The notes under the pieces were generated by a model. That model was not told where the DNA came from. It did no database searches and was given only the letters and a program-made list of their open reading frames with translations. The position numbers and the translations under genes were made by a program. Shown here piece after piece: positions 2,535 to 19,485 of a stretch of DNA of 64,000 nt. Every line of letters begins with the position of its first letter. Position 1 is the first letter of the stretch. The stretch is from Gammaproteobacteria bacterium (GTDB taxonomy: Bacteria > Pseudomonadota > Gammaproteobacteria > UBA4575), in NCBI GenBank assembly GCA_965215055.1, contig OZ244046.1, positions 1,391,202 to 1,455,201 on the forward strand. The letters are read 5' to 3'.

Positions 2535-3848
2535 ATGATCAACATAGACTCAAAGTGTTGCATAATGCGATCTCACTTTTCCCTTCTGGCTCTATGCCTG
2601 TGCCTAGCTACCCTTCAGGCTTGTAAAAGCACAACAAGTCTCAGTGCTCCCATGTTGGACCCCATTTCTGTGCCAACACTCGAAGGCACAAAGCCCATTG
2701 CTTTCAGGAAAATCGTCTTGAAAATCCCCCATCATCGTCCGATTGGTAAGCTATCTAGGGGTCTTCTGTGCCTAAAAAAAGATGATTTTACGCTATCTGG
2801 TGGGCGTCACCAACTGAACACTGATCGGTTCAATGAAATCTTTCACACCGAGCTTCAACTCGCAAACTACAAAGTTGTCGGTGACCCGGATGCTTTGTTC
2901 GAAGACCCAGAGATCAAATCGGCAGAATATTTAATCGCTGGCCTAGTCAAGAGCATAGAGGCGAACGTGTGCTATCCAAAGAGTAGGTCTGGAAATTACA
3001 GTTCCTCGAGTGCGGCGGTCTACATGGAAGTAGAGTGGCAGATTTTTGATGCGTTGCGGCGCAAGATTGTAGAGAAAGTGCACACACAGGGTTCATCCAA
3101 GGTTGGTATAAGCTATAACGGTATTGGGAAGGCGTTTGATAATGCCTTCGCGCTTGCGACGCGGAATCTGCTCGCAGACAAGAAATTTTATCAACTCGTG
3201 CACATAAGCGACGCGGAGAACCAATACACTGATCAAGTTAAAAAAGACAACGACTGGAAGCTTGCAGCTTTGAACACTGTGAAAATATCAACAGTTAATG
3301 GAGAGGTCGACATAGACTTACTGAAACAAGCTACTGCGGTCGTGCGGTCTGCACTCGGCCATGGTAGCGGTTTCGTGATCGGAGAGGGGTTTCTCGTCAC
3401 TAGTGAGCATGTCGTCGCTGGAGCGAAGAAGGTCAGGTTAATTTTTGGTGATGGCGCGGAGATCGATGCGAATGTAGTGATTGTCGATGATCGCAGAGAT
3501 GTCGCGTTGATTCATTTCACCGATAGCTTCATAAGACCTTTGTTGCCCATAAGGCCCACAAGCGTGGAGGTTGGGGAGGAAGTTTATTCGTTTGGTGCGC
3601 CTTTGAGTGAGAAATATAGCGGCACGCTCCGAAAAGGCGTTGTTAGTGCCCATCGCAGGGTCCAAGGCCTCGATTACATACAAAGCGACGCTCCTGTCAA
3701 TCCTGGAAACTCTGGCGGGCCGTTGATCGACAGAAACGGTTCTGTGGTAGGTATCTCGGTGTCAGGTCTTTTGTATGATAGCTCTGTGGAGCAAGGGGTA
3801 AACTTTTTTATTCCTATCAAAGAGGTACTCGCCGCTTTAAGGAAGTAG
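2535..3848 (+). CDS. lipoprotein with unknown N-terminal domain and C-terminal trypsin-like (S1) serine protease domain. True start probably ~2565
   Basis: Lipobox LALCLCLATLQAC. C-terminal GSGFVIGEGFLVTSEHVV...GNSGGPLIDRNGSVVGISVSG (His and Ser active-site motifs of DegP-type proteases). Lower GC than flanking core genes. Confidence 0.6.
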   Translation: MINIDSKCCIMRSHFSLLALCLCLATLQACKSTTSLSAPMLDPISVPTLEGTKPIAFRKIVLKIPHHRPIGKLSRGLLCLKKDDFTLSGGRHQLNTDRFNEIFHTELQLANYKVVGDPDALFEDPEIKSAEYLIAGLVKSIEANVCYPKSRSGNYSSSSAAVYMEVEWQIFDALRRKIVEKVHTQGSSKVGISYNGIGKAFDNAFALATRNLLADKKFYQLVHISDAENQYTDQVKKDNDWKLAALNTVKISTVNGEVDIDLLKQATAVVRSALGHGSGFVIGEGFLVTSEHVVAGAKKVRLIFGDGAEIDANVVIVDDRRDVALIHFTDSFIRPLLPIRPTSVEVGEEVYSFGAPLSEKYSGTLRKGVVSAHRRVQGLDYIQSDAPVNPGNSGGPLIDRNGSVVGISVSGLLYDSSVEQGVNFFIPIKEVLAALRK

Positions 3849-3954
3849 CTTCCATATACCGCACCGGATAAGGAGGACTATACAAGGAGATATATAGTTA
3901 ATGCGATATATGACCCATTACTTACCATGCTAAGGGAGGAACAAGATAAGTAAA

Positions 3955-4239
3955 CTAGTGCTGCCATCGGTTCCTACACACAGCAGAGTACTTGTCGCAA
4001 CCAGTAGAGGTGATCCAGTCGTTTCTACCTCTATATTCAACCTCAGAAACCTGTCTTTCAGCCTCTCTAGTTCGTCGTGCTGCGTCTTCCATGCTGTAAT
4101 CAGGCCGCCATTCTCGCTCATAACTTGCATTGATTCTGGCTTGGGCTTCATCTATTTTCGGATCGCCTGTAGGCCAAGCTCCCGCATTGCTGAACATAAA
4201 GGCTCCGAATAGCATCAATATCAGTAGTTTAATCTTCAT
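3955..4239 (-). CDS. small secreted hypothetical protein
   Basis: N-terminal signal peptide MKIKLLILMLFGAFMFSNAGA. AT-rich context. Confidence 0.4.
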   Translation of the reverse strand: MKIKLLILMLFGAFMFSNAGAWPTGDPKIDEAQARINASYEREWRPDYSMEDAARRTREAERQVSEVEYRGRNDWITSTGCDKYSAVCRNRWQH

Positions 4240-4433
4240 AGTTATCTCCTTTTAGGTTAGTCATTTCTTCCGTCTCTTATCTGCCCTATGAAACTTGCAA
4301 GCTACTTTTCGTGAAATCTTCTTGCGAACCCTGCCTTTACAAGCGGCTGCCATAAATCGTCTCTGTTTGGCAGTCTTGCTAGGCATGTCGTTTTTATCCT
4401 TGTAAAGAGTATATGCAGGTATTTAATCAACAG

Positions 4434-4739
4434 TCAACCTCCTCTTGGTATCTGATCCTCTGGACTTGACCATACATTCGCTATTCTTTTCCAGTGTTCA
4501 TTATTAGTCGGGTTAAAGTCATGGAGGTGGTCATACGAATCTGTGATATTTATCCACGCCTTAATTGCTTCATAGCGCCGGATATACTGCCCTCGCTTTG
4601 TATCGAAAGTCTGCTTTTCCGTATCAGACATGGCTAATCTTATATGTATTTCGTCAATCTCGTCATCTGCCAAGTATACTTTTGTGCATATTCGCTTTCG
4701 GCAGTTCTCTTTCAGGGTTTTCAACTTGCCAAACTTCAT
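4434..4739 (-). CDS. hypothetical protein (101 aa) immediately downstream of the giant NTPase gene
   Basis: ORF from track, no recognisable motif. AT-rich. Confidence 0.35.
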   Translation of the reverse strand: MKFGKLKTLKENCRKRICTKVYLADDEIDEIHIRLAMSDTEKQTFDTKRGQYIRRYEAIKAWINITDSYDHLHDFNPTNNEHWKRIANVWSSPEDQIPRGG

Positions 4740-4817
4740 TCTACGAACCTGATCTTCCTTAAAAGCCGATACGATGTCATTCCAACTAGGCTTTGGACAT
4801 CGTTCTGAATGAAGGCA

Positions 4818-7800
4818 CTAGATTTCATGCTGTGCCTCTCGTTCCTCGTCTTCGGTGTGGGCGTTCTCGATCTCGGTATTGAGTCGGCGAAGCATGGTTT
4901 TGGCCCAGCGTTGCACTTGCCCCCGTGGATGATCATTCAGCGTGCTTAGCGGCGCTTGGTAAAGCTCGTAATAGGCTCCTAATGCTCCCCACCAAACGAA
5001 GGTATGTATATTGCGAGAGATAGCTTGCAGCACATCCTGACGGTCGCCGAACTCGTCGAGTAGCCGCGTCATGACTTGATGCAGCAAGCGTTTGGTGGCA
5101 TCAACTCGATAAGTGTTGAGTACCGGCACGATCGCTGCTGTGAAAGCCGGTGCGCGCTCCGGGTTAGCATGGCACCAAGCGAACAAGGTATCCTGGGGAA
5201 GGCTCAAGATTGGGGGATTCTCCCCGCGCATGGAAGAACCCAGGCCGTTCAAGACAGATTCAAAGTGCAACGCTTGCCTTCGGTCAGAAACGATTGCTTG
5301 ACCAATGAGAGGCCAAGTTATTTCGGGAAAGTTAGACAGCAGTATGGGAATCATAGGCTCCAAAAGCCGCCCATGGTGCTGCTCAGCAATTTTGACCAGC
5401 GCACGCGCCAGCACCAAGGCTATGGTACAAGCGTCGCGGTCCTGCCGGCCATGCTTCAGCATCCACTCAGTGATTGTCTCGAAGTGGTAAGCTACCATTG
5501 TTTCACGCGGTGGCTGTTCCCACCGGGCTATATTTTCTGCAGACTTAAGGATTTGTGGTCGTAGGTCATCGAGCTTATCGAGTGCACCATGAACATACTT
5601 CCCCATTAGGCTCACAGCTACTGCAAACGCTTCCATATTGTGGTCGAGCATCGCATCAAACAAGGGCGCTACCACAGGGGCAGGAACCTTAGCAAGCACT
5701 CCACCAAATTTCCAGCACTCTAATTGTTCAGGATCCAGCAAGCCCTCCTGAAGAGCATCAATAATCAACTCGATATCTGATGGGGTGATGCCGATTCGCA
5801 AACAAATTAGGGGAAGTGCTGATGCAAGCTCGGGCGATTGTGCCGCCTTCCGTTTAAAATCATCCACGACATCTGGATGGTTCTCAACGATACCCTTTAC
5901 ATACCCTGAAAGCAGATCGAAGTTACGCTCTTCCGGCACTTCTACGACAGCGGAGGTGATTGGTTTCAGCCAGTCCAGCGGTGACTCAGCAGAGGTGGCG
6001 ATAGACTTTCCAAAGATATAAGCTTTACGCTGCTGACCTTGGCTGACTCGGAGCAGAATTCTCTTAAGGGTCGCTGGTGGTTGTTTGACGATCTCGACTG
6101 CTAGCACACGCACTGCCTCAGCTTGGCGCTGTTCGAGTGTATCGAAATCTAACTTTTCTTCACAAGGAAAGTCCCATGGCATCTCGGTGACGAGGAAACG
6201 CACGCGCGCTTCTATATCCTTCGGCTGCAGCTTGGCAATCAATGTCTTGACCCGACTGATCATTTCATGATCATCGTCGGTAGCATCGTGCTTGAGGAAA
6301 TGACCAAGACTTTCCAGTGCCTCTACCCACTGATCAACTTTATCGCCTACCTGGTCGACCACTGTTTCCACGGTATCAATGAGACCATGCTCAATCAGTG
6401 AGTGTAGATGACGGCCGAGACTGGCGCGAGCAGCGATACCGGAGTCGTCGTCCTGCTCAGCAAATTGAGCAAGGTACATCACACAATTCTTAATATAGTC
6501 AGTTGCCTTCTCGTTTGTGTCTGGACGCCAATCTTTTAGAGCTGGTCGGGACCCGTGAATCTCTGCGCCCACATAACGCGAGAAATAATCCGTCTTCACT
6601 CCAGCAATCAGAGCTTTGACGACAATAGAGCGTTGTACAGGATTGTTAGTTTTGGTTGCTTCATTCAGGATGGAGAGCCGCGAATTGCCATCGGCGGCAG
6701 TGTTACCAGCCAGCATAGGAAAGAGTGCTTTGAACTGATTGGCGGCGTTGTTGTGGATATGTTGTTTGTTCTCGGCAACTGCGAGGCGTAGCAGGAGTCG
6801 GGTGCCATCCTCAAAGGTGTCAGAACAAAAGGCAATTTTCTCCAGTGCCAAGACAAGGTGACAGTGCACGTCGCCTTTGATCTCCGACAGATTCTCAATT
6901 TCTATCAAGGAGCGCTTAATCTGGTCCACAACAACTCTAGAGTTGATTTCGGCAAAAGCTGACAGCACCTCGGCGTGGTCCGCCTTGTAAACTCCTTCGG
7001 AGCCATCGAACGGTCCATCCCGACGGCAGACATGAGCAACCACTTTCTGGGAAATGTCAGTCGTGTTAAGCAGGGCGAGCTGCCGAGCAGCCCGGATTTT
7101 GAGATTGGAACTAGTATCGCCGGCCAGTACCTCATCCCATTTATCTGGGGTCCACCTTTGCCACTGACTCTCGGCTAGTCTCATGGCGACCGGGCGAGGC
7201 TGAAGAATAGCTAATCTTCCTCTCCGTTGAACAACGCCTCGCTCGGTAAGTTGCTGGAAAGCGTCGTGTAGGTCTTCGACCGTAAGATTACAGCTCACGT
7301 GGGCAATCTCACCGAGTTCAGTTGAGTCCTCTATCTCGACTAAGCCAAATGTGGCCAGTAACGCCGCCGACTTGCGTAACAGGTCGGGCTTATGAGGCTT
7401 GCGTCCCAGGACGAATGCGTCGACAAGATCATGGTCCTCGACATGAGCAACGGGTATGCCCTCAGTCCATGCTTTCCTGATGCGGATGGCGATTCTCGGG
7501 AAGCCTTTGGAGAAATGCACAAGCCGTCGCTGGTCTTCGGACGGCAAGCCCAGTGGCACTTGATTGACGATGGCCTCAATAACAGAAAGTGGTGCCTCCT
7601 CAACCTTGAATGTCATCTTATCCAACGTTTCCAACGTTCCAGGAGGTATCTCGCTGTCGATAGTGACTAGTGAAAGATGGCTACACTCACGCGAAACTAT
7701 GCCAGTGAGAATCCTATGCGTTCCAGGAGTACAACAATCGACGACCACAATGGCGCGCTGCCCCATATCCACCAGATTTTGAACGATGTTATTGATAGAT

Positions 7801-8849
7801 TCCGAGTCGGCCTCGGACTCGTTGGCATAAAGCACGATGTTGCTAACGAAGAGGTCCTCTTCGTTAGCGGAACCAAGAGCTTCAAGTGTCAATCGGGATT
7901 TGCCGACGCCCGATAGTCCGACTATGCGGACAACACCTTTTGGTTTTGTTACCCGCTCACGCAGCCAGGTACGCAACACGGGAAGACGCTCGTCATCGAC
8001 CCGGAGCGAGCTGTCATGCTCGGCGCGACCAGCCCAGTGGGACCAGGAGCGGAAGGGACCAATGGTTCCGGGCTGTGTCTGCTCCTTCACCCAGGTAGCA
8101 ACAGCGGGGTGGCTATTTGTCCACGCAGCGATCTGGTCGGCGTCGCGAAACTGGACTTGGTCATCGTCGATGGTGATACCAGTGCCACGAAGTGCTTCCA
8201 GAATCCGCATTTCTCGTTTTTTGATATCCTTGTAGACGTAACGATGGGCACACAGCATAATGTAGCGACCGCCATCCTCAATAGTCGAGCCCACCATACC
8301 CTTGACCGATCCTGCTTTGGTCAGAACATCGCTGCCTGCCTTGGCCGGCGTAATTTTGCTCGCTTTTAATTGGAACTGATTGAGCCGTGAAGGAAGGAAT
8401 GGTGTATGGTCAGGGCCGTCGTCCCATCTGATGTGTCCGTCTTCGCCTTCATCAGGGGTAGTAATTTTGCTGGCCACATGGACGTTATAAGCTGGCAGCC
8501 CATTGGCTGCGGCTTCCGCATGTAGTATCCGCTCTAAAAATAGGGAGAATGTCCGCTCGGTTAGAAATGCGATGTGCTCCCCTGTCACTTCGAATGGGCG
8601 GTGTTTTACAATGGTGGTCATAGGACGAGACTTACTTCCTTGAAGGGTAGAGATCGCGGCTGGGTTAGCCTTCAGCAACCGCAGCAGGTTAACGACAGAA
8701 GCAGCAGGCTTCACAGTTCCAGACTCATATTTTGTGAAGGCGCGTGGCCCACCACCCAATAGTTCACCGGCCTCTACTTGGGAAAGGCCAAGCTCTTTTC
8801 GAATAGCGCGGATTTCATCAGGGTCGATCTCGTTTTTATTTTCTTTCAT
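4818..8849 (-). CDS. 1,343-aa multidomain protein: N-terminal MqsA-type (XRE) HTH, unknown middle region, P-loop NTPase, ~900-aa alpha-helical (HEAT/ARM-like) repeat tail. Candidate defence-type STAND-like NTPase
   Basis: aa 14-66 IRKELGLSQVEAGELLGGGPRAFTKYESGTVKPAASVVNLLRLL aligns with the MqsA C-terminal HTH (VRKKLSLTQKEASEIFGGGVNAFSRYEKGNAQPHPSTIKLLRVL). Walker A GLSGVGKS (aa 311-318, nt ~7896-7919). Walker B-like AIVVVDCC (aa 366-373). No stop in 4 kb. Confidence 0.65.
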   Translation of the reverse strand: MKENKNEIDPDEIRAIRKELGLSQVEAGELLGGGPRAFTKYESGTVKPAASVVNLLRLLKANPAAISTLQGSKSRPMTTIVKHRPFEVTGEHIAFLTERTFSLFLERILHAEAAANGLPAYNVHVASKITTPDEGEDGHIRWDDGPDHTPFLPSRLNQFQLKASKITPAKAGSDVLTKAGSVKGMVGSTIEDGGRYIMLCAHRYVYKDIKKREMRILEALRGTGITIDDDQVQFRDADQIAAWTNSHPAVATWVKEQTQPGTIGPFRSWSHWAGRAEHDSSLRVDDERLPVLRTWLRERVTKPKGVVRIVGLSGVGKSRLTLEALGSANEEDLFVSNIVLYANESEADSESINNIVQNLVDMGQRAIVVVDCCTPGTHRILTGIVSRECSHLSLVTIDSEIPPGTLETLDKMTFKVEEAPLSVIEAIVNQVPLGLPSEDQRRLVHFSKGFPRIAIRIRKAWTEGIPVAHVEDHDLVDAFVLGRKPHKPDLLRKSAALLATFGLVEIEDSTELGEIAHVSCNLTVEDLHDAFQQLTERGVVQRRGRLAILQPRPVAMRLAESQWQRWTPDKWDEVLAGDTSSNLKIRAARQLALLNTTDISQKVVAHVCRRDGPFDGSEGVYKADHAEVLSAFAEINSRVVVDQIKRSLIEIENLSEIKGDVHCHLVLALEKIAFCSDTFEDGTRLLLRLAVAENKQHIHNNAANQFKALFPMLAGNTAADGNSRLSILNEATKTNNPVQRSIVVKALIAGVKTDYFSRYVGAEIHGSRPALKDWRPDTNEKATDYIKNCVMYLAQFAEQDDDSGIAARASLGRHLHSLIEHGLIDTVETVVDQVGDKVDQWVEALESLGHFLKHDATDDDHEMISRVKTLIAKLQPKDIEARVRFLVTEMPWDFPCEEKLDFDTLEQRQAEAVRVLAVEIVKQPPATLKRILLRVSQGQQRKAYIFGKSIATSAESPLDWLKPITSAVVEVPEERNFDLLSGYVKGIVENHPDVVDDFKRKAAQSPELASALPLICLRIGITPSDIELIIDALQEGLLDPEQLECWKFGGVLAKVPAPVVAPLFDAMLDHNMEAFAVAVSLMGKYVHGALDKLDDLRPQILKSAENIARWEQPPRETMVAYHFETITEWMLKHGRQDRDACTIALVLARALVKIAEQHHGRLLEPMIPILLSNFPEITWPLIGQAIVSDRRQALHFESVLNGLGSSMRGENPPILSLPQDTLFAWCHANPERAPAFTAAIVPVLNTYRVDATKRLLHQVMTRLLDEFGDRQDVLQAISRNIHTFVWWGALGAYYELYQAPLSTLNDHPRGQVQRWAKTMLRRLNTEIENAHTEDEEREAQHEI

Positions 8850-8854
8850 AATGT

Positions 8855-8865
8855 ACCTTAAAGGT
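8855..8865. promoter_or_regulatory. MqsA-type operator-like palindrome ACCT-TAA-AGGT 6-16 nt upstream of the start codon of the giant HTH-NTPase gene
   Basis: Plus strand atgtACCTTAAAGGTcat directly adjacent to the ATG at 8849-8847 (minus). MqsA is known to bind ACCT-N(2-4)-AGGT palindromes. Confidence 0.5.
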
Positions 8866-9130
8866 CATATATTAAATAATAAGCACCATTATGGTATATA
8901 TTTTTTATGGTGTCAAGATTTGATTCTAATATGAGGTTGTTGAGTTCTCTTACACCACCTCTTCTCCTACGCAACCTCTTAATGTATTTCTCGGTGGTCC
9001 TCGCCAGAACTTTGATTGATCACTGATTTCGAGAAGTTGTTCTGAAGAAGGAGTGGGAGTCATGTTGTTTTACCTGAAATAGGGAATAGTAGGCGTAAAA
9101 TAACTTGCTTGTTACCAACCTTTTGTCTTC

Positions 9131-10935
9131 ATGGCCGAAACTGATTACATCACTCCGGAAATTGCGGGGACTCTACCTGGCCTGCTGAATGAGCGCATAT
9201 CACGGTCACCTGCTTCAGTGGCGTATGGCTATTATGATGATGAAAAACAAGCTTGGCAGTACTTGAACTGGCAGCAAGTTGCGCAACGGGTCGCCGCCAT
9301 TCAGGCCGCTTTGCGGCAGGAGCAGCTTGTAAAGGGTGACCGTGTTGCCATCATGTTGCGCAATTGCCCCGAGTGGATAGCATTTGATCTTGCAGCACTA
9401 AGTCTGGGTTTGGTTACGGTGCCCTTGTACACCCATGACTCGTTTGAGAACGTAGCTTACGTGGTTCAGGACGCAGGCGTGAGGCTTATGCTTGTTCAAA
9501 ACCGGCGTCAGTGGCGACAGTTAGCACAGACAGGCTTGGGCAGCGACTCATTGCAGCGAGTGGTTACTGTCGAGCCGATTGCTCACCAGGATACCTTGGT
9601 CGTATCCATGCAAATGTGGCTGGCAGGCCACGCGGATGCCAAGTTTCATAGAATCCCCATCGATACGGATGAACTGGCAACGATTATCTATACTTCTGGC
9701 ACAACCGGGCGTCCCAAGGGGGTCATGTTGAGCCACAGAAATATCCTGTCCAATGCGTATGCGGCTTTGCAATGTGCGGATTTCTTCGCGCACGACGTGT
9801 TTTTATCTTTTTTGCCGTTATCTCATGCCTTGGAACGCACCTCAGGTTGTTATCTGCCGATGATGGCGAATGCGAAGGTATATTTTGCGCGTTCGGTGCA
9901 GCAATTGGCGCAAGACATCCAGGAAGTTCGCCCGACCGTGCTTGTATCGGTACCACGCATCTACGAAATGATATATGCAAAGGTCCTCGACTCGTTACGG
10001 CAACAATCTTTATTCGGGCAAAAGATATTTGCATGGACGCAGTACGTCGGCTGGCGTCGGTTTCGGTTCATGTCAGGTAGAGCCGGTTGGCACTGGAGTC
10101 TATTGAGCTGGCCTTTGTTGAACCGCCTGGTTGCCAGAAAGATCAATCAGAAGCTTGGTGGAAGATTGCGCTACGCCATTGCCGGCGGCGCTGCGCTGAG
10201 CAAGACAATTGCAAAGTTTTTTGTCAGCCTGGGTGTACCGCTTTACCAGGGTTATGGGATGACGGAAAGCAGCCCTGTAATCAGTGTCGGCCGACCGCAA
10301 GATAATGATCCGTTCAGTGTTGGCAAGGTGCTGCCAAGCTTGGAAATCAGGGTTACTGAAGATGGCGAGCTGTGCACGCGCAGCGATTGCGTAATGCTGG
10401 GCTATTACAAGAATGAAGATGCTACACGAGAAGTTGTAGACGATGAGGGCTGGTTGCATACGGGAGACATGGCTGCCGTAAGCGATGATGGGTATTTGTA
10501 TATCACGGGCAGAATCAAGGACATCATAGTCCTGGCAAATGCTGAAAAGGTACCACCGCAAGATATGGAGACTGCAATTTGTGCGGATGCTTTGTTTGAT
10601 CAGGTTATGGTGTTGGGTGAGGGTAGGCCTTTTCTGGTAGCCCTGCTGGTATTGCATGAGGCAGAGTGGCGGAAACGGAAGGTACTCTTGGCTTCGATGC
10701 TACGGGAACGGAAAGTTTGCAGTCATCGCGGGCGCGAAAATATATATTGAAGCGTTTGTCAGGTTGCCTAAGGGAGTTTCCCGGTTATGCTCAAATACGA
10801 AGGGTCAGTCTCTATCTTGATCCGTGGACGATTGAGAATGGTTTGCTGACACCGACTCTGAAAATAAAAAGGGCACAACTTCAGCGGCGGTTTGAAAAAG
10901 ATATAGAGGCTATGTACGAATCTCTGGCGCACTGA
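9131..10935 (+). pseudogene. long-chain-fatty-acid--CoA ligase (FadD-like, AMP-binding) with an apparent frameshift near 10670-10690. Genuine pseudogene or sequencing error
   Basis: ORF 9131-10750 carries the AMP-binding signature TSGTTGRPKGVMLSHRN. The conserved C-terminal end (FPGYAQIRRVSL..PWTIENGLLTPTLKIKRAQL) continues in ORF 10666-10935 in another frame. Confidence 0.6.
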
Positions 10936-10976
10936 ATCGCTTTGATGTCATCGGCGGCCAAAAGATTACGCGGGAG

Positions 10977-11504
10977 TCACTGCTTGACCTGTATCAACAT
11001 GGCGTCAATCCCGTTTGTGCGCAAATGCCCGCGTATTTGCTCCAGGTACTGTCGGTTGCTGACAGGACCGATACGTACCCTGTGCCACGTCTCGTTGTTT
11101 ACGCTTACCGACTGAACGTTAGCTGTCACGTTCAGCTGTGCCAAGCGTGTTTTCAGGTTGTCGGCATCATCCAATTGTTGGAATGAACCGACCTGCAACA
11201 GGTATTCTCCGGTAAGTATTGTACGTTCCCTGTGCGCAGGGTTTTTCGTCTCTTCCTCAGGGATTACAACTTCCAGTTCCGGCAATATGGTGTAGAAGTC
11301 GAATGTACGTTGTGCAGGTGGCTTGCCGCTTGTCCCGCCTTGTTCATCATGAGCCGTGGAGCCTGTCTGTAATGGGTCGGCCTGGTGGTCATCGGTGCTT
11401 GTTATCTTTGCAATGCCCAGCCCTATCAGAATACCCAGCGTCAGCCAAATCCAGGCACGGGGATTTCTTTGAGACCGGATCGGTCGTCTCTTTGCGCCGG
11501 ACAT
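10977..11504 (-). CDS. SPOR domain-containing protein (FtsN/DedD-like), N-terminal TM helix
   Basis: C-terminal YLLQVGSF...WHRVRIGP SPOR-like sequence. TM segment WIWLTLGILIGLGIA. Confidence 0.65.
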   Translation of the reverse strand: MSGAKRRPIRSQRNPRAWIWLTLGILIGLGIAKITSTDDHQADPLQTGSTAHDEQGGTSGKPPAQRTFDFYTILPELEVVIPEEETKNPAHRERTILTGEYLLQVGSFQQLDDADNLKTRLAQLNVTANVQSVSVNNETWHRVRIGPVSNRQYLEQIRGHLRTNGIDAMLIQVKQ

Positions 11505-11509
11505 CAGTT

Positions 11510-13261
11510 CTACATGTGCCGAGGAGCGCTTACGTCAAGCAGTGTAAGGCCATTTTGTAATATGATCTGCGTTGCCCGAATCAGTTTGAGACGTGCTTCT
11601 CGCAGTGGCGGATCGTCGACTAAAACCTGGTGAGCGTTGTAGAAACTGTGAAAGGCATTTGCAAGGTCGCGCAAATAGTTGACCATGACGTGAGGAGAAA
11701 GCTGCTCAGCTGCCGTTAGAACCTTCTCCGGAAATTGATCCAGGTGCTTTATCAAATCCAGCTCCTGTTCTTCAGCCAGAAGGGCTGCATCCGCTTTAAC
11801 GAGATTGTGTTCCCGGCCACCGGCCTGCCCAAAAATGCTGCAAATTCTTGCATGTGCATATTGTACATAATAAACGGGGTTGTCTTGTGTTTGTGAAGTC
11901 GCCAAGTCCAGGTCAAAATCCAGGTGCTGTTCACACCTGCGCATCACGTAAAAAAAACGCGCGGCATCTTTGCCAATCCGTTTTCGCAATTGGCGCAAGG
12001 TGATGAATTCACCAGCGCGGGTAGACATGGCAAGTTTGTTTTTGCCTTCATACAAATTTGCAAACTGTACCAACAGGATACGCAGCCGGTTTGAATCTTT
12101 GCCAAGTGCCCCGACAGCAGCTTTTACACGTGCAATGTAGCCGTGATGGTCAGCACCCCATACGTCAATCAGTTGATCAAACCCGCGTTCATATTTTTCC
12201 AGATGATAGGCAACGTCTGATGCGAAATAGGTGGTTTGGCCGTTTTTACGTACCAGCACCCGGTCCTTCTCGTCACCAAATGCAGTGCTGCGAAACCAAA
12301 GTGCACCATCTTTGTTATACGTGTGGCCGCTATGAGTTAATTTGTCAAGCGCAGTCTGTACTTTGTTCTCCGTTACCAAGGTTCGCTCTGAGTACCAGTT
12401 GTCAAAATATACCCCGAAGTGTTCCAAATCATCCTTGATATCGTCAGTGATAATATCCAGTGCGCGTTTGCCGAAGGTTGCATAATCAGACTCGCCAAGT
12501 AATTCTTTGGCTATGTTGATAATGGCGTTTATGTAAGCCTCTTGATCCTTGTCTTGCAATTCATGCGGGTCCGGTAGCCGTGGTAGCCAAGTCTGTACCG
12601 GATGGTGGAATTGATTTTCATATTCCCTGTGCAGGGAGGCGGCGATGTCCCAAATATAGTCGCCCTGGTAGGCGTTGTCTGGAAAGGCAAGTGTTTCACC
12701 ACACAATTCCAGGTATCTCAGCCACACCGACGTCGTCAGAATATCAATCTGTCGGCCCGTATCGTTTACGTAGTATTCGCGATAGACTTCGTAACCAACC
12801 GCTTCAAGTAAATTGGCGATAGTCGCCCCGTAAGCGGCGCCGCGTCCGTGACCGACGTGTAAAGGACCTGTGGGGTTTGCGGAGACGAATTCGATCTGTA
12901 TCTTGTTACTGGCGTATTTGTCCGTGCTGCCGAAGCTGTCTTTTTTACTCAAGATTTGATTGAGAGTCTCGCCGTGAAGTCCGGTGTGCACGTGGAAGTT
13001 GAGAAACCCTGCACCTGCGATTTCGATTTTGGCGATTGCATCATCATCGGGTATGTGGTTGACAATCTTTTCTGCCATCTTGCGCGCCGGCACGTTCATG
13101 CGCCCCGCAAGTTGTAATGCCAGGTTGCTGGCGAAATCGCCATGGGCCTTGTCCTTGCTGCGCGTAACATGGATATCGATTTTTACATCTGCCGGCAGGT
13201 CGCCCCGAGCCTGCAAGCTGGATACGGCGTCCCGCAATAATTGAATAATGTGTAATTGCAT
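11510..13261 (-). CDS. argS: arginine--tRNA ligase
   Basis: Class I HIGH motif SANPTGPLHVGHGRGAAYG. Full-length ArgS-like, 583 aa. Confidence 0.95.
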   Translation of the reverse strand: MQLHIIQLLRDAVSSLQARGDLPADVKIDIHVTRSKDKAHGDFASNLALQLAGRMNVPARKMAEKIVNHIPDDDAIAKIEIAGAGFLNFHVHTGLHGETLNQILSKKDSFGSTDKYASNKIQIEFVSANPTGPLHVGHGRGAAYGATIANLLEAVGYEVYREYYVNDTGRQIDILTTSVWLRYLELCGETLAFPDNAYQGDYIWDIAASLHREYENQFHHPVQTWLPRLPDPHELQDKDQEAYINAIINIAKELLGESDYATFGKRALDIITDDIKDDLEHFGVYFDNWYSERTLVTENKVQTALDKLTHSGHTYNKDGALWFRSTAFGDEKDRVLVRKNGQTTYFASDVAYHLEKYERGFDQLIDVWGADHHGYIARVKAAVGALGKDSNRLRILLVQFANLYEGKNKLAMSTRAGEFITLRQLRKRIGKDAARFFYVMRRCEQHLDFDLDLATSQTQDNPVYYVQYAHARICSIFGQAGGREHNLVKADAALLAEEQELDLIKHLDQFPEKVLTAAEQLSPHVMVNYLRDLANAFHSFYNAHQVLVDDPPLREARLKLIRATQIILQNGLTLLDVSAPRHM

Positions 13262-13334
13262 CAGAAAAGCCGGTTAACCGGAAAGGCGTTGCATTATACC
13301 TGTTGCTTTTGTATGCGACTTGCCATCTTCTTTT

Positions 13335-15353
13335 TTACTCCATTTCCAGCGGGTCTACTTCAATGTTCCAGCGGACTCGCTTGGCGAGGGGGCGTTGTTG
13401 AATAATGTGCGCCCAGTTGCCCAGTTGTTGCTGCATGACTTTTCTACTGGGAGAGGTGAGGATCAGTTGGCTTTGATACATTCCAGCTTTGCGTGCCAAC
13501 AAGGCTGGAATAGGCCCCATGATTTTGAGTCGGGATGAGTTTTTTGCGGACATTAAGTTTTTGACGTCTTGCAAGAATCGTTGTTGCAGGTTTTTCTGGC
13601 GTGCGCGTGCATGTATCAAGGTCATGCAAGTATAGGGAGGTAGCGCACAGCCCTTGCGCGTTTTCAAGGCCTCTTCGGAAAAGACGTCATAACCATCGGC
13701 CAGCAAGCGAGTAAGTAACGGATGCTCGGGTTGATGAGTCTGTAATAATACCTTTCCCTTGTCAGCCCCGCGGCCTGCTCTGCCAGCGACTTGTATTACC
13801 AACTGTGCAAGGCGTTCCATGGCGCGGAAATCCGTGCTGAATAAACCATGATCAACATTGAGAATGCCCACCAGCGTTACCTTCGGAAAGTCATGGCCTT
13901 TGGACAGCATTTGTGTGCCAATGATGATTTGATACTTGCCGCGATGGATATCATCCAGCTTGGTTTGTAATGCATGCTTTTTGCGGGTGCTGTCGCGATC
14001 AATTCGGGTAACGGCTGTGTCGGGAAATAGTTTTCTCAGCTTGTTTTCAATTCGCTGTGTGCCTTCTCCCAGCCATAGCAGGTTGTTGCGGCGGCATTGT
14101 GGGCATGTATCGGGGGCATCCTCTTCTTTCAGGCAATAATGACACTTCATGATTTTTCGCTTTTTATAGAAGGTCATTCGAGCGTCGCAGCGCGAGCATT
14201 CGGCTATCCAGCTACAATCCTGACAAAATAAGACGGGCGCATAGCCGCGACGATTCAAGAAAAGCAGAACTTGGCGTTTTTTACTCAACTCGGACTCGAT
14301 CGCTTCCAGAAGATCAATGGATAAGCCTCCGGAAGCCATCCTGGTGCGCATGTCAATCAGTTCTACCTGCGGGATTTCCGCCTGCCGGGCACGTTGGCTA
14401 AGTACCAGTTTTTGATATTTTTTTGTATTGACATTGTGCTGGCTTTCAAAGGAAGGGGTTGCACTACCCAGAATGATGGGGATTGATGCGCGTTTGGCGC
14501 GATAGACGGCGATATCGCGGGCATGATACAAGAATCCTTCCTGTTGTTTGAATGACAGGTCGTGTTCTTCATCAACAATAATCAAACCAAGATTTTTGAA
14601 AGGTAAAAAAACGGCAGAGCGTGTCCCTACGATTATTTGTGTCGTTCCGTTACTGGCTGCAAGCCAAGCCTGGGCGCTTTCACTTGCGTTCAGGTTCGAG
14701 TGCATTACGGCAATCTGTCCTCCCAGCCTTGCCTTGATGCGTCGTACCAGTTGCAGGGTCAGTCCGATTTCAGGTACAAGAATGAGGACTTGTCTGTCGC
14801 TGCGAATCACGTCTTTGGCCAAGGCAAGATAAACCTCGGTTTTACCACTGCCGGTAACTCCGGCAAGCAAATAGCTGTTGAACTCGTTCAGTCTTTTTTG
14901 AATTTGAGTATAGGCGCGTTGTTGCTCTTCATTAAGGGTAAGGCGTTGTAAAGAATGGCTCGGAATTGTGTCATTACGGCTTCGATAGAAAATCTTGCCT
15001 GGTGATGTAATGAATTGCCTATTGCGCAATGTTCTGGGCATTGCAGCACCAAGTACTTCCCCTAATGGTTGCTGGTAATAACTGGCGACCCAAAATAGTA
15101 CCTCCAGCAAAGGCTGATCGAGCACGGGCTGCTCGTCAAGAATTTTGGTAACGGTTCTCAGTTTACTGAGTGGCAGGGCACTGTGGTCGCTCTTGTCAAT
15201 GACGATACCGGTAAGTGTACGTTGCCCGAACGGTACTTGTACGCGCACGCCGATTTCAATACTATCGGTGGCCGGTTTTTCAGGTGCCAGGTATTCAAAG
15301 TTTTGGTATAGTGGTACAGGCAGTGCAATTTGCAGAATGGACGCTGATTTCAT
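13335..15353 (-). CDS. priA: primosomal protein N' (replication restart helicase)
   Basis: Walker A GVTGSGKT, DEEH box, Cys4-type zinc-finger region CQDCSWIAECSRCDARMTF...CHYC...CPQC. Confidence 0.95.
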   Translation of the reverse strand: MKSASILQIALPVPLYQNFEYLAPEKPATDSIEIGVRVQVPFGQRTLTGIVIDKSDHSALPLSKLRTVTKILDEQPVLDQPLLEVLFWVASYYQQPLGEVLGAAMPRTLRNRQFITSPGKIFYRSRNDTIPSHSLQRLTLNEEQQRAYTQIQKRLNEFNSYLLAGVTGSGKTEVYLALAKDVIRSDRQVLILVPEIGLTLQLVRRIKARLGGQIAVMHSNLNASESAQAWLAASNGTTQIIVGTRSAVFLPFKNLGLIIVDEEHDLSFKQQEGFLYHARDIAVYRAKRASIPIILGSATPSFESQHNVNTKKYQKLVLSQRARQAEIPQVELIDMRTRMASGGLSIDLLEAIESELSKKRQVLLFLNRRGYAPVLFCQDCSWIAECSRCDARMTFYKKRKIMKCHYCLKEEDAPDTCPQCRRNNLLWLGEGTQRIENKLRKLFPDTAVTRIDRDSTRKKHALQTKLDDIHRGKYQIIIGTQMLSKGHDFPKVTLVGILNVDHGLFSTDFRAMERLAQLVIQVAGRAGRGADKGKVLLQTHQPEHPLLTRLLADGYDVFSEEALKTRKGCALPPYTCMTLIHARARQKNLQQRFLQDVKNLMSAKNSSRLKIMGPIPALLARKAGMYQSQLILTSPSRKVMQQQLGNWAHIIQQRPLAKRVRWNIEVDPLEME

Positions 15354-15588
15354 GGTAATCGTTGACGAAGCAGCCCTTCGGGATAGACGCGCGGTCAGCC
15401 CACTCTACTTTCTCGTAGCACCTGTGAGACTTCTAACAGACATCTGATTTGGCAGCTTTTCACCAGGTGTGCAGGGCTGAGGCCGGTTCAACCCTTGTCA
15501 GGGGCAGTTCTTTGTTTGTGCTGACGCAGCAATCATAGCACAAGCTTTTATCGTGGTTTTGTGGGAAAATAAAAGGTAACGTATCTTC

Positions 15589-17016
15589 ATGTCTGAACTC
15601 CCCGGCGAGCCTGATCAGTTCCAAATATTTGTTATTTTCCGAGTGAGACCTTTTTCAAGCATGACTCAAAAAGCTGTTCATCTGTTCGTTCTGGGTTGCC
15701 TGCTGTGTTTTGCAACGGCAACTACCGCCGCGCTGCCCGTCAGTGTTGATGGACAACCATTGCCTACCTTGGCATCCATGCTGGAGAGAACTACGCCCGC
15801 TGTAGTAAATATTTCTACTACCGGAAAGGCCGTGGTGCGTGATCCGTTTTTTGATGATCCGTTCTTTCGCCGCTTTTTTGATATGCCGGAACGACGACGG
15901 GAAAGACGCGTCAAGGGGCTTGGGTCGGGGGTAATTATTGATGCGGATAATGGCTACATTGTAACCAATTCACATGTAATTGATAAGGCCGAAGACATCG
16001 TTGTGACACTGGAAGATGGCCAGCGATTTGATGCCCAAGTCATCGGTAAAGATGCTGGTGCCGATATTGCCGTGATTAAAATTGAAGCGAAACGTTTGCA
16101 GGAAATTTCACTGGGTGATTCCGATGACTTGCGGCAGGGGGATTTTGTCGTGGCGATTGGAAATCCGTTTGGCCTGGGGCAGACCGTAACCTCGGGAATT
16201 GTCAGTGCCCTGGGACGTAGTGGACTTGGTATAGAGTCTTATGAGGACTTTATTCAAACCGATGCTTCTATCAACCCTGGAAACTCCGGCGGCGCCCTGG
16301 TGAATTTACGCGGTGAACTGGTTGGTATCAACACTGCTATTTATGCACCCAGTGGCGGCAATATCGGGATTGGTTTTGCAATTCCCGTCAACATGGCTCA
16401 ACAGATTACGGCACAGTTGATCGAACATGGTGAAGTGAGACGCGGTCGTCTGGGCCTGGTTGCGCAAGATCTGACTCCTGAATTGGCGGAAGCCTTTGGC
16501 ATATCCCGCAACAAGGGTGTTGTAGTGGCGCGGGTGGAAACGAGTTCTCCAGCAGACAAGGCGGGTATTCAGGTAGGAGACGTCATAGTTGCGGTAAACA
16601 AAAGCAAAGTGGAAAGTGCGGCGCAGGTGCGTAATGCAATTGGCCTGTTGCGCATTGGCAATCGAGTTAATATCAAGATATTACGCGATGGTAAGTCCAA
16701 ATCGCTCACCGCTGTCATTGAAGAAAAAGTCAAAAAGAACATTAGCGGGGAATCCCTCAGCAGTAAATTGACCGGGGTGGAATTCAGGCAAGTCCCGGAA
16801 AACGCCGCTCGTGGCACTGCTGCTGGTATAGAGGTCGTGCGCGTAAGTGGAAGGGCGCGCTCGGCAGGGCTGCGAAGAGGCGACATTATTATCAGCGTGA
16901 ATAGAAAGCGCGTGAAAACCATTCGCGACATGAAGGCCGCAATCAAGAAGAATCCGAGTGCGATATTGCTGAATATCCAGCGGGATATGCAAGGCCTGTT
17001 TATTCTTATTCGCTAA
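15589..17016 (+). CDS. periplasmic serine endoprotease DegP/DegQ/MucD family with two PDZ domains. Likely true start ~15661 (MTQKAVHLF signal peptide)
   Basis: Catalytic triad motifs NSHVI, D, GNSGGALVN. Two PDZ-like segments. Confidence 0.9.
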   Translation: MSELPGEPDQFQIFVIFRVRPFSSMTQKAVHLFVLGCLLCFATATTAALPVSVDGQPLPTLASMLERTTPAVVNISTTGKAVVRDPFFDDPFFRRFFDMPERRRERRVKGLGSGVIIDADNGYIVTNSHVIDKAEDIVVTLEDGQRFDAQVIGKDAGADIAVIKIEAKRLQEISLGDSDDLRQGDFVVAIGNPFGLGQTVTSGIVSALGRSGLGIESYEDFIQTDASINPGNSGGALVNLRGELVGINTAIYAPSGGNIGIGFAIPVNMAQQITAQLIEHGEVRRGRLGLVAQDLTPELAEAFGISRNKGVVVARVETSSPADKAGIQVGDVIVAVNKSKVESAAQVRNAIGLLRIGNRVNIKILRDGKSKSLTAVIEEKVKKNISGESLSSKLTGVEFRQVPENAARGTAAGIEVVRVSGRARSAGLRRGDIIISVNRKRVKTIRDMKAAIKKNPSAILLNIQRDMQGLFILIR

Positions 17017-17064
17017 TCGTGAAGGACGTTGTTCAGGCGTGAAAATTTTTATAGAGTAGTCTTT

Positions 17065-17298
17065 TCAACCGCCTGTAACAGGAGGGAAAAATGCAACTTC
17101 ATCTCCTTCCTTCACTTCTTTGCTGAAGTCGGCATATTCATGGTTGACCGCGACCAGGAGTCGCTCTGGTCGCTCCATGTTATTTGTTGCCTGCCGCCAA
17201 ATTTTTTCAACTGTCGTGGTTCCGGTGATTAACAAATGGTCGCTATCTCGTCCCATGGTTTCCCGCAGGCTGGCAAAGTACTTTACATGTACAGTCAT
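17065..17298 (-). CDS. moaD: molybdopterin synthase sulfur-carrier subunit
   Basis: 77 aa ending FPPVTGG. Confidence 0.8.
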   Translation of the reverse strand: MTVHVKYFASLRETMGRDSDHLLITGTTTVEKIWRQATNNMERPERLLVAVNHEYADFSKEVKEGDEVAFFPPVTGG

Positions 17299-17387
17299 TT
17301 TTCAGATACGGTAGCCGAATGCTTATACTACTTGTAAAACTAAATGGTACCATCGCATGGCAATGAAGGCAGCATGGCAGGCACATC

Positions 17388-17867
17388 GTGAGAAAATTCA
17401 CGCATTTTAATCAAGCGGGCGAGGCGCACATGGTGGACGTGGGCGAAAAAACCGTCAGCCACCGGGTTGCAATAGCCGGGGGACGCATCCGTATGCAGGC
17501 GGAAACGCTGCAACAGGTACAAAACAGGGGGCATAAGAAAGGTGATGTCCTTGGCGTAGCGCGTATTGCCGGTATTATGGCGGCCAAGAGAACGTCGGAA
17601 CTGGTGCCGTTGTGTCACCCTTTGTCATTGACTACTGTGGAGATCGAGTTCGACATTGAACAGGCATCTGCCTCGATATATTGCAGGGCAACCACGGAAA
17701 CCCATGGCCCAACTGGTGTGGAAATGGAAGCTCTTACGGCAGTGCAGATCGCCTTGTTGACGATTTACGATATGTGTAAAGCCGTTGACCGAGGCATGAT
17801 CTTACAAGATATCAAATTACTGAAAAAAACAGGTGGGACGTCTGGCACGTGGGTGTGCAAGGACTAG
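17388..17867 (+). CDS. moaC: cyclic pyranopterin monophosphate synthase
   Basis: Conserved MoaC sequence ([13 protein letters not shown]). Confidence 0.9.
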
Positions 17868-17889
17868 TTTGTTTTAGTCTTGCAAAAGC

Positions 17890-18951
17890 ATGCCGATGAA
17901 TGAATCTTTCAGCGATCGGATTCTGACGTGGTTCGATCAATATGGCCGTAAAGATTTGCCTTGGCAGCGTGGTCGAAGCCCTTATGGTATCTGGGTTTCC
18001 GAGATCATGTTGCAGCAGACACGTGTTGAAACCGTAATTCCATATTATGAGAAATTCATACGCAGGTTTGCAAACGTGGAACAGCTTGCGCATGCACCAC
18101 TTGATGAAGTGTTACACCATTGGACGGGTCTAGGCTACTATGCGCGGGCAAGGAATTTGCACAAGGCTGCCAGGCAGCTATGCGAGAAACATCATGGTGT
18201 TTTCCCGCAAACCTTTGATGAAGTCGTTGCGCTGCCAGGTGTTGGTCGTTCTACGGCCGCCGCAATCTTGGCCCTGAGCTTTGATCAGCGGCACGCCATT
18301 TTGGACGGCAATGTAAAGCGTGTGTTGACCAGGTATTTTGCGGTAACGGGTTGGCCTGGTAATCGCTCAATTGAAACAAAACTCTGGCAACACGCGGAAT
18401 CATTATTGCCACAAAATGAGGTTGGGCGGTATACGCAGGCGATGATGGATTTGGGGGCTACACTGTGCACGCGCACCAATCCGGGTTGTGCAGGTTGCCC
18501 GATTCGTTTCGGGTGCATGGCCTTTAGGCAGCAACGTCAGTTGGAATTTCCTACTCCGAAACCTGTGCGAAATTTGCCCCGCCGTAAAGTGCTGGTTGCC
18601 CTGCTTCAAAATCGCGAAGGCGAAGTGTGGCTGGAAAAACGCCCGCCCGTCGGTATTTGGGGAGGTCTGTACAGCTTCCCTGAATTTGTGGATGAATCCA
18701 GTATGCAGAGATGGCTTGAGAAAACATGCAAAATGGGTCGTTCTAAAGTTACCGTATTGCCGACTGTCACCCATATTTTTTCTCACTTTCAACTGCACAT
18801 GTATCCAAAACTGGTGCAACTGCAACGATTTCCCAACGTTGTGATGGAAGACGGCCTCGGGGTTTGGTATAAAGGCGGTGAACAAAAAATTGGATTGGCA
18901 TCGCCGATCAAGAAGACCTTACGACTGGTAACAGAAGGGAGACTCCCATGA
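17890..18951 (+). CDS. mutY: A/G-specific adenine DNA glycosylase
   Basis: HhH-GPD and 4Fe-4S cluster loop [18 protein letters not shown]-terminal NUDIX-like domain. Confidence 0.9.
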
Positions 18952-19223
18952 CGCGCACGGTACAATGCGTGAAGCTCGGTAGAGAAGCCGAGGGCTTGGA
19001 ATATATGCCATATCCCGGGGAATTGGGCCAGAAGATTTATGATAGTGTTTCGAAAGAAGGCTGGGAAATGTGGGTCAATCATCAAACGATGCTGATGAAC
19101 GAATACAGGCTCACTCCCGTTGACCCGAAAGCGCGTAAATTCCTGGAAGAGGAAATGGAAAAGTTCTTTTTTGGTGAAGGCTCGGCAAGGCCAAAAGAGT
19201 TTGTCGACCCCAATGCTCAATAA
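18948..19223 (+). CDS. yggX: Fe(2+)-trafficking protein YggX
   Basis: 91 aa [31 protein letters not shown]. Classical mutY-yggX pairing. Confidence 0.9.
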
Positions 19224-19303
19224 CGAGCACACGTCGAGCAGGCATTGACATCTCATATACAGGCTCGTCTAATTGCGCGCTACAAACTATCCTTCTGATA
19301 TCT

Positions 19304-19379
19304 GGCCAGGTAGCTCAGTCGGTAGAGCAGTGGACTGAAAATCCTCGTGTCGGTGGTTCGATTCCGCCCCTGGCCACCA
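19304..19379 (+). tRNA. tRNA-Phe (anticodon GAA)
   Basis: 76-nt cloverleaf GGCCAGGTAGCTCAGTCGGTAGAGCAGTGGACTGAAAATCC..GGTTCGATTCC..CCTGGCCACCA, close to E. coli tRNA-Phe. Confidence 0.9.
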
Positions 19380-19485
19380 TATAATCAAATGTATCTATAC
19401 GAGCTTGAAACTATTCAGATGTATTTATAGCCATATTATTCACTCCCTGATTTTCTCTTACATCCCCATAACACGTGAATGATGT

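Follow-up and report, generated by a model that had tools for sequence, protein, structure and literature searches.

What does the DNA-binding domain of an antitoxin do at the front of a protein that otherwise looks like an antiphage receptor? This question is raised by an open reading frame (ORF) on the minus strand of a 64-kb stretch (the whole of which is hereafter called the window) of contig OZ244046.1, from the gammaproteobacterial assembly GCA_965215055.1, where it is the longest ORF of its neighbourhood. A preliminary description, made from the DNA letters alone, had proposed that this ORF encodes a 1,343-residue fusion of an MqsA-like helix-turn-helix (HTH), a Walker-type nucleoside triphosphatase (NTPase) and helical repeats, and that it acts as an undescribed single-gene defence system. 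The ORF is real and the three-part architecture is upheld: from the N to the C terminus, the protein successively comprises an HTH, a flexible linker, a predicted PD-(D/E)xK nuclease, a STAND NTPase, and an alpha-solenoid sensor. Taken together, the data presented below point to the window gene being, most probably, a distant relative of Avs8 (PD-lambda-4) to which an MqsA-type HTH has been added that would repress the gene's own transcription.

The relationship with Avs8 extends over all of the protein except its N-terminal part. The PADLOC model PD-Lambda-4_A (PDLC03991) is matched with an E-value of 5.8e-93 and a score of 310 bits, residues 86-1341 aligning to positions 4-1282 of the 1283-position profile. 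Since close members of the family reach 1777 bits (a plasmid-borne Enterobacter protein, colinear with the window protein at 23% identity) and 969 bits against the same model, the window protein belongs to a distant Avs8 clade. In the same line, BLASTP against Avs8A of E. coli ECOR07 (WP_000963924.1, the copy that had been purified and assayed, found by its accession in an E. coli chromosome together with Avs8B, WP_000443183.1) gives a colinear alignment of query residues 86-1324 with Avs8A residues 4-1261, with an E-value of 3e-44 and 21% identity over 1305 columns. While the identity to the canonical Avs8 clade amounts to 19-23%, more than 120 full-length homologues of the 1,343-residue protein are found at 54-79% identity. 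The system can thus not be regarded as undescribed, all but its HTH being a full-length colinear homologue of PD-lambda-4A/Avs8A and, as far as homology tells, the core of the window protein is a member of a known and recently characterised family.

PD-lambda-4 was reportedly discovered by Vassallo et al. in 2022, in a screen of the E. coli pangenome. It has since been renamed Avs8, and its component Avs8A was described as a STAND NTPase whose N-terminal part is a nuclease of the Mrr family (Nagy et al., bioRxiv 10.1101/2025.07.02.662641). According to the same work, Avs8A binds the major capsid proteins lambda gpE and Bas21 with nanomolar affinity and, once capsid-bound, degrades double-stranded DNA in a Mg/ATP-dependent manner; defence is lost in mutants of the nuclease active site, and Avs8A is sufficient by itself for defence (bioRxiv 10.1101/2025.07.02.662641), Avs8B being reported as dispensable. 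Independently, Avs8 was also placed among the STAND families that sense capsids (Lee et al., bioRxiv 10.64898/2026.01.04.697583). Avs8A and the window protein have in common a STAND NTPase and an alpha-solenoid sensor, preceded by the Mrr-type PD-(D/E)xK nuclease of Avs8A and its predicted counterpart in the window protein; these domains follow each other in the same order over about 1250 residues, and the two proteins share the nuclease and Walker motifs as well as a location in variable defence loci. Besides, just as Avs8A suffices alone, the window gene has no conserved partner: Avs8B was not found by tblastn of WP_000443183.1 against the window and 80 loci, by PADLOC on the downstream ORFs, or by clustering of the neighbours, so that, unlike the PD-lambda-4 system, neither the window nor the HTH-clade loci hold an Avs8B gene. 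The window protein differs from Avs8A by an extra 85 N-terminal residues (the MqsA-type HTH and the linker), by palindromes in its promoter, and by a sequence that is only 21-23% identical. Canonical Avs8A proteins are 1280-1285 residues long, have neither a Pfam domain nor an HTH, and occur in Enterobacterales, Aeromonas, Pseudomonas, Halomonadaceae and other groups; the HTH clade is mostly known from environmental and symbiont metagenome-assembled genomes (MAGs) of many phyla, and not mainly from Enterobacterales.

The domains of the core were further characterised with structure models of two pieces of the protein, namely residues 1-560 and residues 86-1285, the latter computed with AlphaFold2 from a 90-sequence alignment of two clades and reaching a mean pLDDT (predicted local distance difference test) score of 84. 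Between the HTH and the NTPase, the preliminary description had placed an 'unknown/effector' region, whose identity was missed: residues 86-260 probably form the conserved PD-(D/E)xK (Mrr-type) nuclease domain of the Avs8 family. In the model, this region follows the alpha-beta-beta-beta-alpha-beta order of PD-(D/E)xK enzymes, with the motif residues (E112, D133-x-G-x-D137, and Q160-x-K162) at their canonical positions, and over three clades and hundreds of sequences the motif shows little or no variation. The proposed Walker A and B motifs of the NTPase, GLSGVGKS and VVVVDCC, are both present, and the module finds its fold matches among the plant NLR resistosomes, Apaf-1, CED-4, SAMD9, NOD2, and the bacterial STAND protein 6mfv. 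The HEAT/ARM-like solenoid that had been read into the C-terminal part agrees with the model, in which the last ~790 residues are all-alpha, with about 40 helices building the solenoid from residue ~552 on. The sensor is covered up to position 1282 of the 1283 of the PADLOC profile, and is colinear up to residue 1261 of EcAvs8A in the BLASTP alignment. As a whole, the model of residues 86-1285 has the Avs3-terminase complex (8dgc) as best PDB match, followed by HEAT-repeat karyopherins, CAND1, and SF3B1. Avs1-4 (AVAST), of which SeAvs3 (8dgc) is an example, also join a nuclease effector at the N terminus to a STAND NTPase and to a helical sensor at the C terminus; in these systems, the sensor binds a conserved phage protein and tetramerisation follows, and the window protein may, by analogy, obey a similar logic. 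The targets of Avs1-4 are nevertheless terminase and portal, their sensors are unlike that of the window protein, and no fused autoregulatory HTH was found described for them.

What distinguishes the window protein from its characterised relatives is therefore its N-terminal domain. Residues 4-65 match positions 65-126 of the 131-position Pfam profile MqsA_antitoxin (PF15731) with an E-value of 8.8e-15, and the NCBIfam model TIGR03830 is matched above its curated cut-off. The nearly residue-for-residue correspondence with the DNA-binding domain of MqsA, already claimed from the translation, is borne out by a gapless alignment to residues 65-128 of E. coli MqsA (PDB 3fmy, 2kz8, 3gn5/3o9x; E-value 1e-11). 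A fold search likewise retrieves the MqsA DNA-binding domain, with Aca2, Aca10 and Aca1 among the closest folds. The Zn-ribbon domain by which MqsA binds its toxin was not found, the matched profile positions being 60-126 only and residues 1-85 being devoid of CxxC motifs; nor was an MqsR-like gene found adjacent, the neighbouring ORFs giving no Pfam or PADLOC toxin match. While E. coli MqsA (YgiT; PDB 3fmy, 3gn5, 3o9x) is a 131-residue antitoxin with a Zn-ribbon, an MqsR partner and a C-terminal HTH, the window protein thus has neither the ribbon nor the partner, and carries its HTH at the N terminus of 1343 residues. In view of these two absences, the name 'type II toxin-antitoxin system MqsA family antitoxin' given to a homologue at NCBI is misleading. 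The two MqsA residues in contact with bases, N97 and R101, are replaced in the window protein by R36 and K40, both of them invariant in the family, which fits a related operator whose specificity would be shifted to ACCA...TGGT instead of ACCT...AGGT. An isoform without HTH, starting internally at M77, was considered as well and rejected, a methionine being found at this position in just 25 of 40 sequences.

The distribution of the HTH within the family sheds light on its origin. An exhaustive HMMER search among 1.84 billion representatives retrieved 4125 relatives, of which 1228 have an E-value of at most 1e-30. Of the best 150 matches, those of full length comprise about 60 clusters of 1330-1400 residues that align from residue 1-12 of the window protein, and about 50 clusters of ~1250-1270 residues that align from residue ~86; for plasmid-borne and other distant relatives, too, the alignment starts no earlier than residue ~86. 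A neighbour-joining tree restricted to the core region places all 55 HTH-bearing proteins inside a single clade of 59, whose four other members are N-terminally truncated or divergent, and leaves all 58 other HTH-less proteins outside. This grouping implies that the HTH was gained once and then long retained, and indicates a single acquisition within the Avs8 family as its probable origin. Today the HTH is present in at least 55 sequence clusters (at 50% identity) from more than ten phyla: the fused form has loci in Gamma- and Alphaproteobacteria (among them Legionella, Luteibacter, and Methylocystis), and also in Chloroflexota, Acidobacteriota, Gemmatimonadota, Nitrospinota, Bacteroidota, Cyanobacteria, Spirochaetia, Dadabacteria, and others. 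Near the border of the clade, two relatives of ~32-33% identity from Verrucomicrobiae and Xanthobacteraceae MAGs (L056:5869-6150 and L057:622-800, the homologue loci being numbered with an L) have a different, divergent N-terminal XRE-type HTH and lack the ACC-N5-GGT site discussed below, and in L036 the HTH is shortened by a deletion, which suggests that the domain may have been remodelled or replaced there. Several genomes hold two copies of the gene, for example OZ253555.1 (L018, L020) and OZ246950.1 (L038, L042). The isolate names of the MAG sets behind many HTH-clade loci (L001-L064) resemble those of metagenomes from marine sponges or other hosts.

The upstream region of the gene holds candidate binding sites for the HTH. 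The preliminary description had reported an operator-like palindrome for this segment, and two are in fact present, here called O1 and O2, spaced by 30 bp from centre to centre. They accompany a promoter which is the best sigma-70-like site within positions 4300-9200, and the same promoter arrangement is found in the proteobacterial homologue loci L001, L002, L003, L009, L026, L031, L066, and L087. The second palindrome, ACCTTTAAGGT, is an exact instance of ACCT-N3-AGGT, the operator through which MqsA represses its own operon; E. coli has two copies of this operator, and in P. putida it overlaps the ribosome-binding site (PMC5422877). O1 and O2 are moreover the sole two AT-cored ACC-N5-GGT sites of the 64-kb window. 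When the region from -200 to +30 around the start codon was searched, at least one ACC-N5-GGT palindrome was detected in 50 of 65 HTH-bearing loci compared to none of 15 HTH-less relatives (Fisher p 2e-8), while a chance background of 0.07 site per region would predict about 4.5 of the 65; none was found upstream of the validated EcAvs8A. The five inner bases, which the search leaves unconstrained, are conserved and symmetric (A49 T50 W A50 T46 of 61), giving the consensus ACCATWATGGT, and the flanks are essentially random. The palindromes concentrate near -45 and -16 from the start codon, pairs are separated by 29-30 bp in 10 of 14 loci and, in the homologue loci with a recognisable sigma-70 promoter, the distal palindrome encloses the -10 box. 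The operator preferred by the HTH clade is accordingly predicted to be ACCA-TWA-TGGT, as opposed to ACCT-N3-AGGT for MqsA.

The genomic surroundings agree with a defence function. About 60 HTH-clade loci share no conserved neighbour, from which it follows that the gene works alone. The genes that recur beside the homologues comprise type III restriction-modification genes, type IIG/DrmMI-like enzymes, HEC-09, tyrosine integrases, and serine recombinases; the nearest relative, at 78% identity, adjoins an XhoI/Eco57I-type (type II) restriction-modification pair. The possibility that the window gene is a syntenic core gene was examined by comparison with a close strain (L084), which is 97.9% identical to window positions 9055-20000 and has the same priA-argS-SPOR-AMP-ligase block, without any match to the left of position 9006 and without the gene. 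At the same site, L084:14539-21758 (contig of ENA ERZ25070786) carries DISARM-like DrmMII, DrmB and DrmA followed by a NERD/UvrD-like gene; this contig stretch ends inside DISARM, and the comparison thus bears on the right-hand border. Given that a near-identical strain carries DISARM instead, the gene with its promoter and operators is strain-specific cargo, and the site beside the AMP-ligase gene is, on the evidence of this alignment, a defence hotspot with alternative cargo. These variable, defence-rich surroundings and the homology to Avs8A support the STAND/Avs/NLR-like single-gene antiphage logic proposed in the preliminary description. By contrast, its claim of an AT-rich segment does not hold for the gene, whose GC content (0.523; 0.540 at third codon positions) is close to that of its neighbours and exceeds the window mean of 0.492; AT-rich parts are limited to the 281-bp upstream spacer (0.363) and to the downstream stretch of small ORFs at 3849-4817 (0.429). 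The features of the locus are gathered in Table 1.

Table 1. Position of the gene, its domains and control elements, and of other features of the locus (window coordinates)
Feature	Position	Strand	Remark
HTH-fused Avs8-like STAND protein	4818..8849	-	Complete ORF, 1343 residues + stop; from ORF list and translation
MqsA-type XRE helix-turn-helix, residues 4-67	8649..8840	-	C-terminal DNA-binding and dimerisation domain of MqsA only
Flexible linker, residues 68-85, HTH to nuclease	8595..8648	-	pLDDT <50 for residues 69-85; sequence and length vary in the family
Predicted PD-(D/E)xK (Mrr-type) nuclease effector domain, residues 86-260	8070..8594	-	Aligns to N-terminal Mrr nuclease of EcAvs8A
STAND NTPase module, residues ~285-550	7200..7997	-	Nucleotide-binding domain, helical domain, winged helix
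Walker A GLSGVGKS, residues 311-318, K317	7896-7919	-	Conserved family-wide
Walker B VVVVDCC, residues 367-373, D371	7731-7751	-	Conserved family-wide
C-terminal all-alpha solenoid sensor, residues ~552-1343	4821..7196	-	Homologous to Avs8A sensor
Sigma-70-type promoter: TTGACA (8916-8911), 17-bp spacer, CATAAT (8893-8888)	8888..8916	-	11/12 match
Putative operator O1, palindrome ACCATAATGGT (coding-strand reading)	8885..8895		Whole -10 hexamer inside
Putative operator O2, palindrome ACCTTTAAGGT	8855..8865		Overlaps Shine-Dalgarno region
Right-hand synteny breakpoint of strain-variable cargo	9006..9055		Conserved chromosome rightward: AMP-ligase, SPOR, argS, priA
101-residue ORF	4434-4739	-	Downstream small ORF
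41-residue Lys/Arg-rich peptide MPSKTAKQRRFMAAACKG...	4264-4386	-	Downstream small ORF
94-residue ORF, signal peptide	3955-4239	-	Downstream small ORF
tRNA-Phe (GAA)	19304-19379	+	Sole RNA gene in the 64-kb window; Rfam and ARAGORN

Several other genes of the region deserve mention. Directly 3' of the gene, positions 3955-4739 of the minus strand (GC 0.43) hold three small same-strand ORFs, none of which has a Pfam or PADLOC match or is conserved beside the homologues. Further on, positions 2535-3848 of the plus strand encode a 437-residue trypsin-like serine protease whose signal peptide is of the lipoprotein type (…LATLQAC); its long N-terminal region has no domain match, and its protease domain gives weak PADLOC matches to RT-Protease, HamA, and Avs1b. 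As a defence partner this protease was rejected, considering its signal peptide, its lack of conservation beside the homologues, and the fact that its matches are generic protease-domain matches only. As for canonical E. coli Avs8 loci, an integrase and further large genes, uncharacterised or of the helicase/DUF2290 kind, adjoin E. coli Avs8A (L085:287-4033 (-) and L086:1103-3993 (-)), and an RNA-directed DNA polymerase stands directly 3' of Avs8A in L083; the surroundings of E. coli Avs8A are typical defence-island neighbourhoods.

Some of the data weigh against the reading of the window gene as a self-repressing Avs8 relative, and have to be set against the evidence above. Concerning the core, the identity to the validated Avs8A is only 21%, and the ligand of the sensor could consequently differ from a capsid protein. 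Taken alone, the nuclease domain gives no significant Pfam, PDB-sequence or fold match, so that its assignment relies on the homology to Avs8A, the motif and the topology together. Moreover, the Walker B motif reads D-C-C where STAND proteins typically have D-D/E, a departure which casts doubt on ATP hydrolysis. Concerning the HTH, both base-contacting residues of MqsA are substituted (N97 to R36 and R101 to K40), and the operator assignment is for this reason founded on co-occurrence. In addition, 15 of the 65 HTH loci do not have an exact ACC-N5-GGT, although degenerate copies are present in some of them and the start codons of others may be mis-assigned. The enrichment statistics overstate independence, as the loci are related by descent; the unconserved flanks nevertheless speak against the whole region being simply inherited. 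Finally, since ACCATWATGGT holds a -10-like CATAAT, part of the conservation of the palindrome could be that of the promoter.

From these elements, the following course of events may be proposed. In the resting state, HTH dimers would sit on O1 and O2, which their 30-bp spacing puts on one side of the helix, and would repress transcription of the gene by blocking RNA polymerase and possibly also the access of the ribosome. Such a negative feedback would keep a potentially self-toxic nuclease at a low and constant level, whatever the host or the copy number, and this buffering would be well fitted to a gene passing from phylum to phylum with its own promoter. Upon infection, if the homologous Avs8A is taken as a guide, the solenoid sensor would bind a phage protein, most likely the monomeric major capsid protein of HK97 fold; the STAND module would then oligomerise with ATP, probably into a tetramer, and the nuclease domains would be activated, leading to DNA degradation and abortion of the infection. 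More speculatively, oligomerisation might also release the HTH from the operators and thereby de-repress the gene. A single polypeptide would in this case couple the sensor, the effector and its own transcription factor, the trigger-driven oligomerisation freeing O1 and O2 for a feed-forward burst of expression, in a clade possibly endowed with its own trigger specificity. We put forward this coupled scheme tentatively, as a rather unlikely extension of the autorepression that we favour.

It is also conceivable, with a likelihood that we judge modest, that both the architecture and the autoregulation hold while the sensor sees a phage component other than the capsid, in which case the clade would functionally be a separate Avs family. 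The identity of merely 19-23% to the canonical clade goes in this direction, all the more as distinct STAND sensor clusters were reported to recognise distinct phage proteins (Lee et al., bioRxiv 10.64898/2026.01.04.697583). On the other hand, the sensor is colinear with that of Avs8A and covers the profile to its end, and Avs8 was shown to recognise by shape capsid proteins of very low mutual identity (bioRxiv 10.1101/2025.07.02.662641).

Another view, which we consider improbable, is that the HTH mainly serves to anchor the nuclease, resting or activated, on DNA, either raising the local DNA concentration for cleavage or parking the protein on the chromosome, and that the promoter palindromes are just one of many sites. 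A flexible linker of 18 residues does join the HTH straight to the putative DNA-cutting domain, and MqsA itself also binds outside its own promoter, for instance at rpoS and csgD (PMC5422877). But both AT-cored ACC-N5-GGT sites of the 64 kb fall in the promoter of the gene itself, the location of these sites over the -10 box and the ribosome-binding site is conserved across phyla, and canonical Avs8A cuts DNA without any HTH (bioRxiv 10.1101/2025.07.02.662641). These observations are better accounted for by a repressor of its own gene.

It is very improbable that the window protein is a ligand-responsive STAND transcription factor following the logic of MalT, GutR or AfsR, with an inactive nuclease-like domain and no killing. 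The combination of a DNA-binding domain, an NTPase and a helical-repeat sensor superficially resembles the AfsR/SARP and MalT types, which were listed as non-immune STAND proteins (Lee et al., bioRxiv 10.64898/2026.01.04.697583). However, MalT/LAL, AfsR/SARP and GutR have no enzymatic effector, whereas the window protein possesses, between the HTH and the NTPase, a predicted nuclease domain whose residues E112, D133, D137, Q160, and K162 vary little or not at all among hundreds of sequences. Homology to a LAL/MalT-like regulator or to a housekeeping ATPase, which the preliminary description had named as what would speak against a defence protein, was looked for and not found; the Pfam scan shows the XRE/MqsA HTH only, without any LuxR- or SARP-type domain, and the full-length homology is to a validated defence nuclease. 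In addition, sites on the gene's own -10 box and ribosome-binding site correspond to the geometry of a repressor, no conserved target gene is present nearby, and the gene is found in defence islands and mobile-element contexts. As to a fusion of the type II toxin-antitoxin kind, in which the HTH would neutralise the nuclease 'toxin' in cis, it is hardly credible despite the 'MqsA family antitoxin' name of the homologue and the above-threshold match to TIGR03830, given that only the DNA-binding half is present, with neither MqsR-binding Zn-ribbon nor CxxC motifs, that no MqsR-like gene is adjacent, and that HTH-less relatives, the validated Avs8A included, are non-toxic without antitoxin (bioRxiv 10.1101/2025.07.02.662641).

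Autorepression by a small HTH has several counterparts among immune regulators. In the anti-CRISPR operons with Aca1, Aca2 or Aca10, as for CapH/CapP, CapK/CapS, BrxR and the HTH-fused HipA-like kinases, a trans-acting or fused HTH regulator, small and of XRE type, represses the promoter of a potentially harmful or costly gene, as proposed here for the HTH of the window protein. Most of these regulators are nonetheless separate proteins, while the putative repressor of the window gene would reside in one polypeptide with the sensor and the effector. In bacteria, the control of self-toxic NLR-like proteins has so far been tied mainly to regulators that are distinct proteins, among them CapH/CapP, CapK/CapS, BrxR, and H-NS. 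The lack of precedent for a toxin-antitoxin-type HTH in such a fusion, put forward by the preliminary description, is consistent with a literature search, not an exhaustive one, in which nothing specific was found on an HTH-fused Avs or STAND defence protein. Whereas the Avs8 core is already known, the HTH fusion that defines a large clade, with its matching operators, thus appears to be new, although an earlier description is possible.

These data suggest a compact alternative to separate regulators, namely a receptor that represses itself through a fused MqsA-type HTH and whose operator travels with the gene. The prediction of autorepression is readily testable, a consensus, two positions and the candidate contacts R36 and K40 being defined and the HTH-less Avs8A clade offering a natural control. 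At the level of databases, proteins now labelled 'MqsA family antitoxin' or 'hypothetical protein' would be better annotated as Avs8-like defence genes. Finally, if the scheme coupling sensing, cleavage and transcription in one polypeptide is true, the family would possess a portable, host-independent module of expression control, which may have helped an NLR-like receptor to spread across more than ten phyla.

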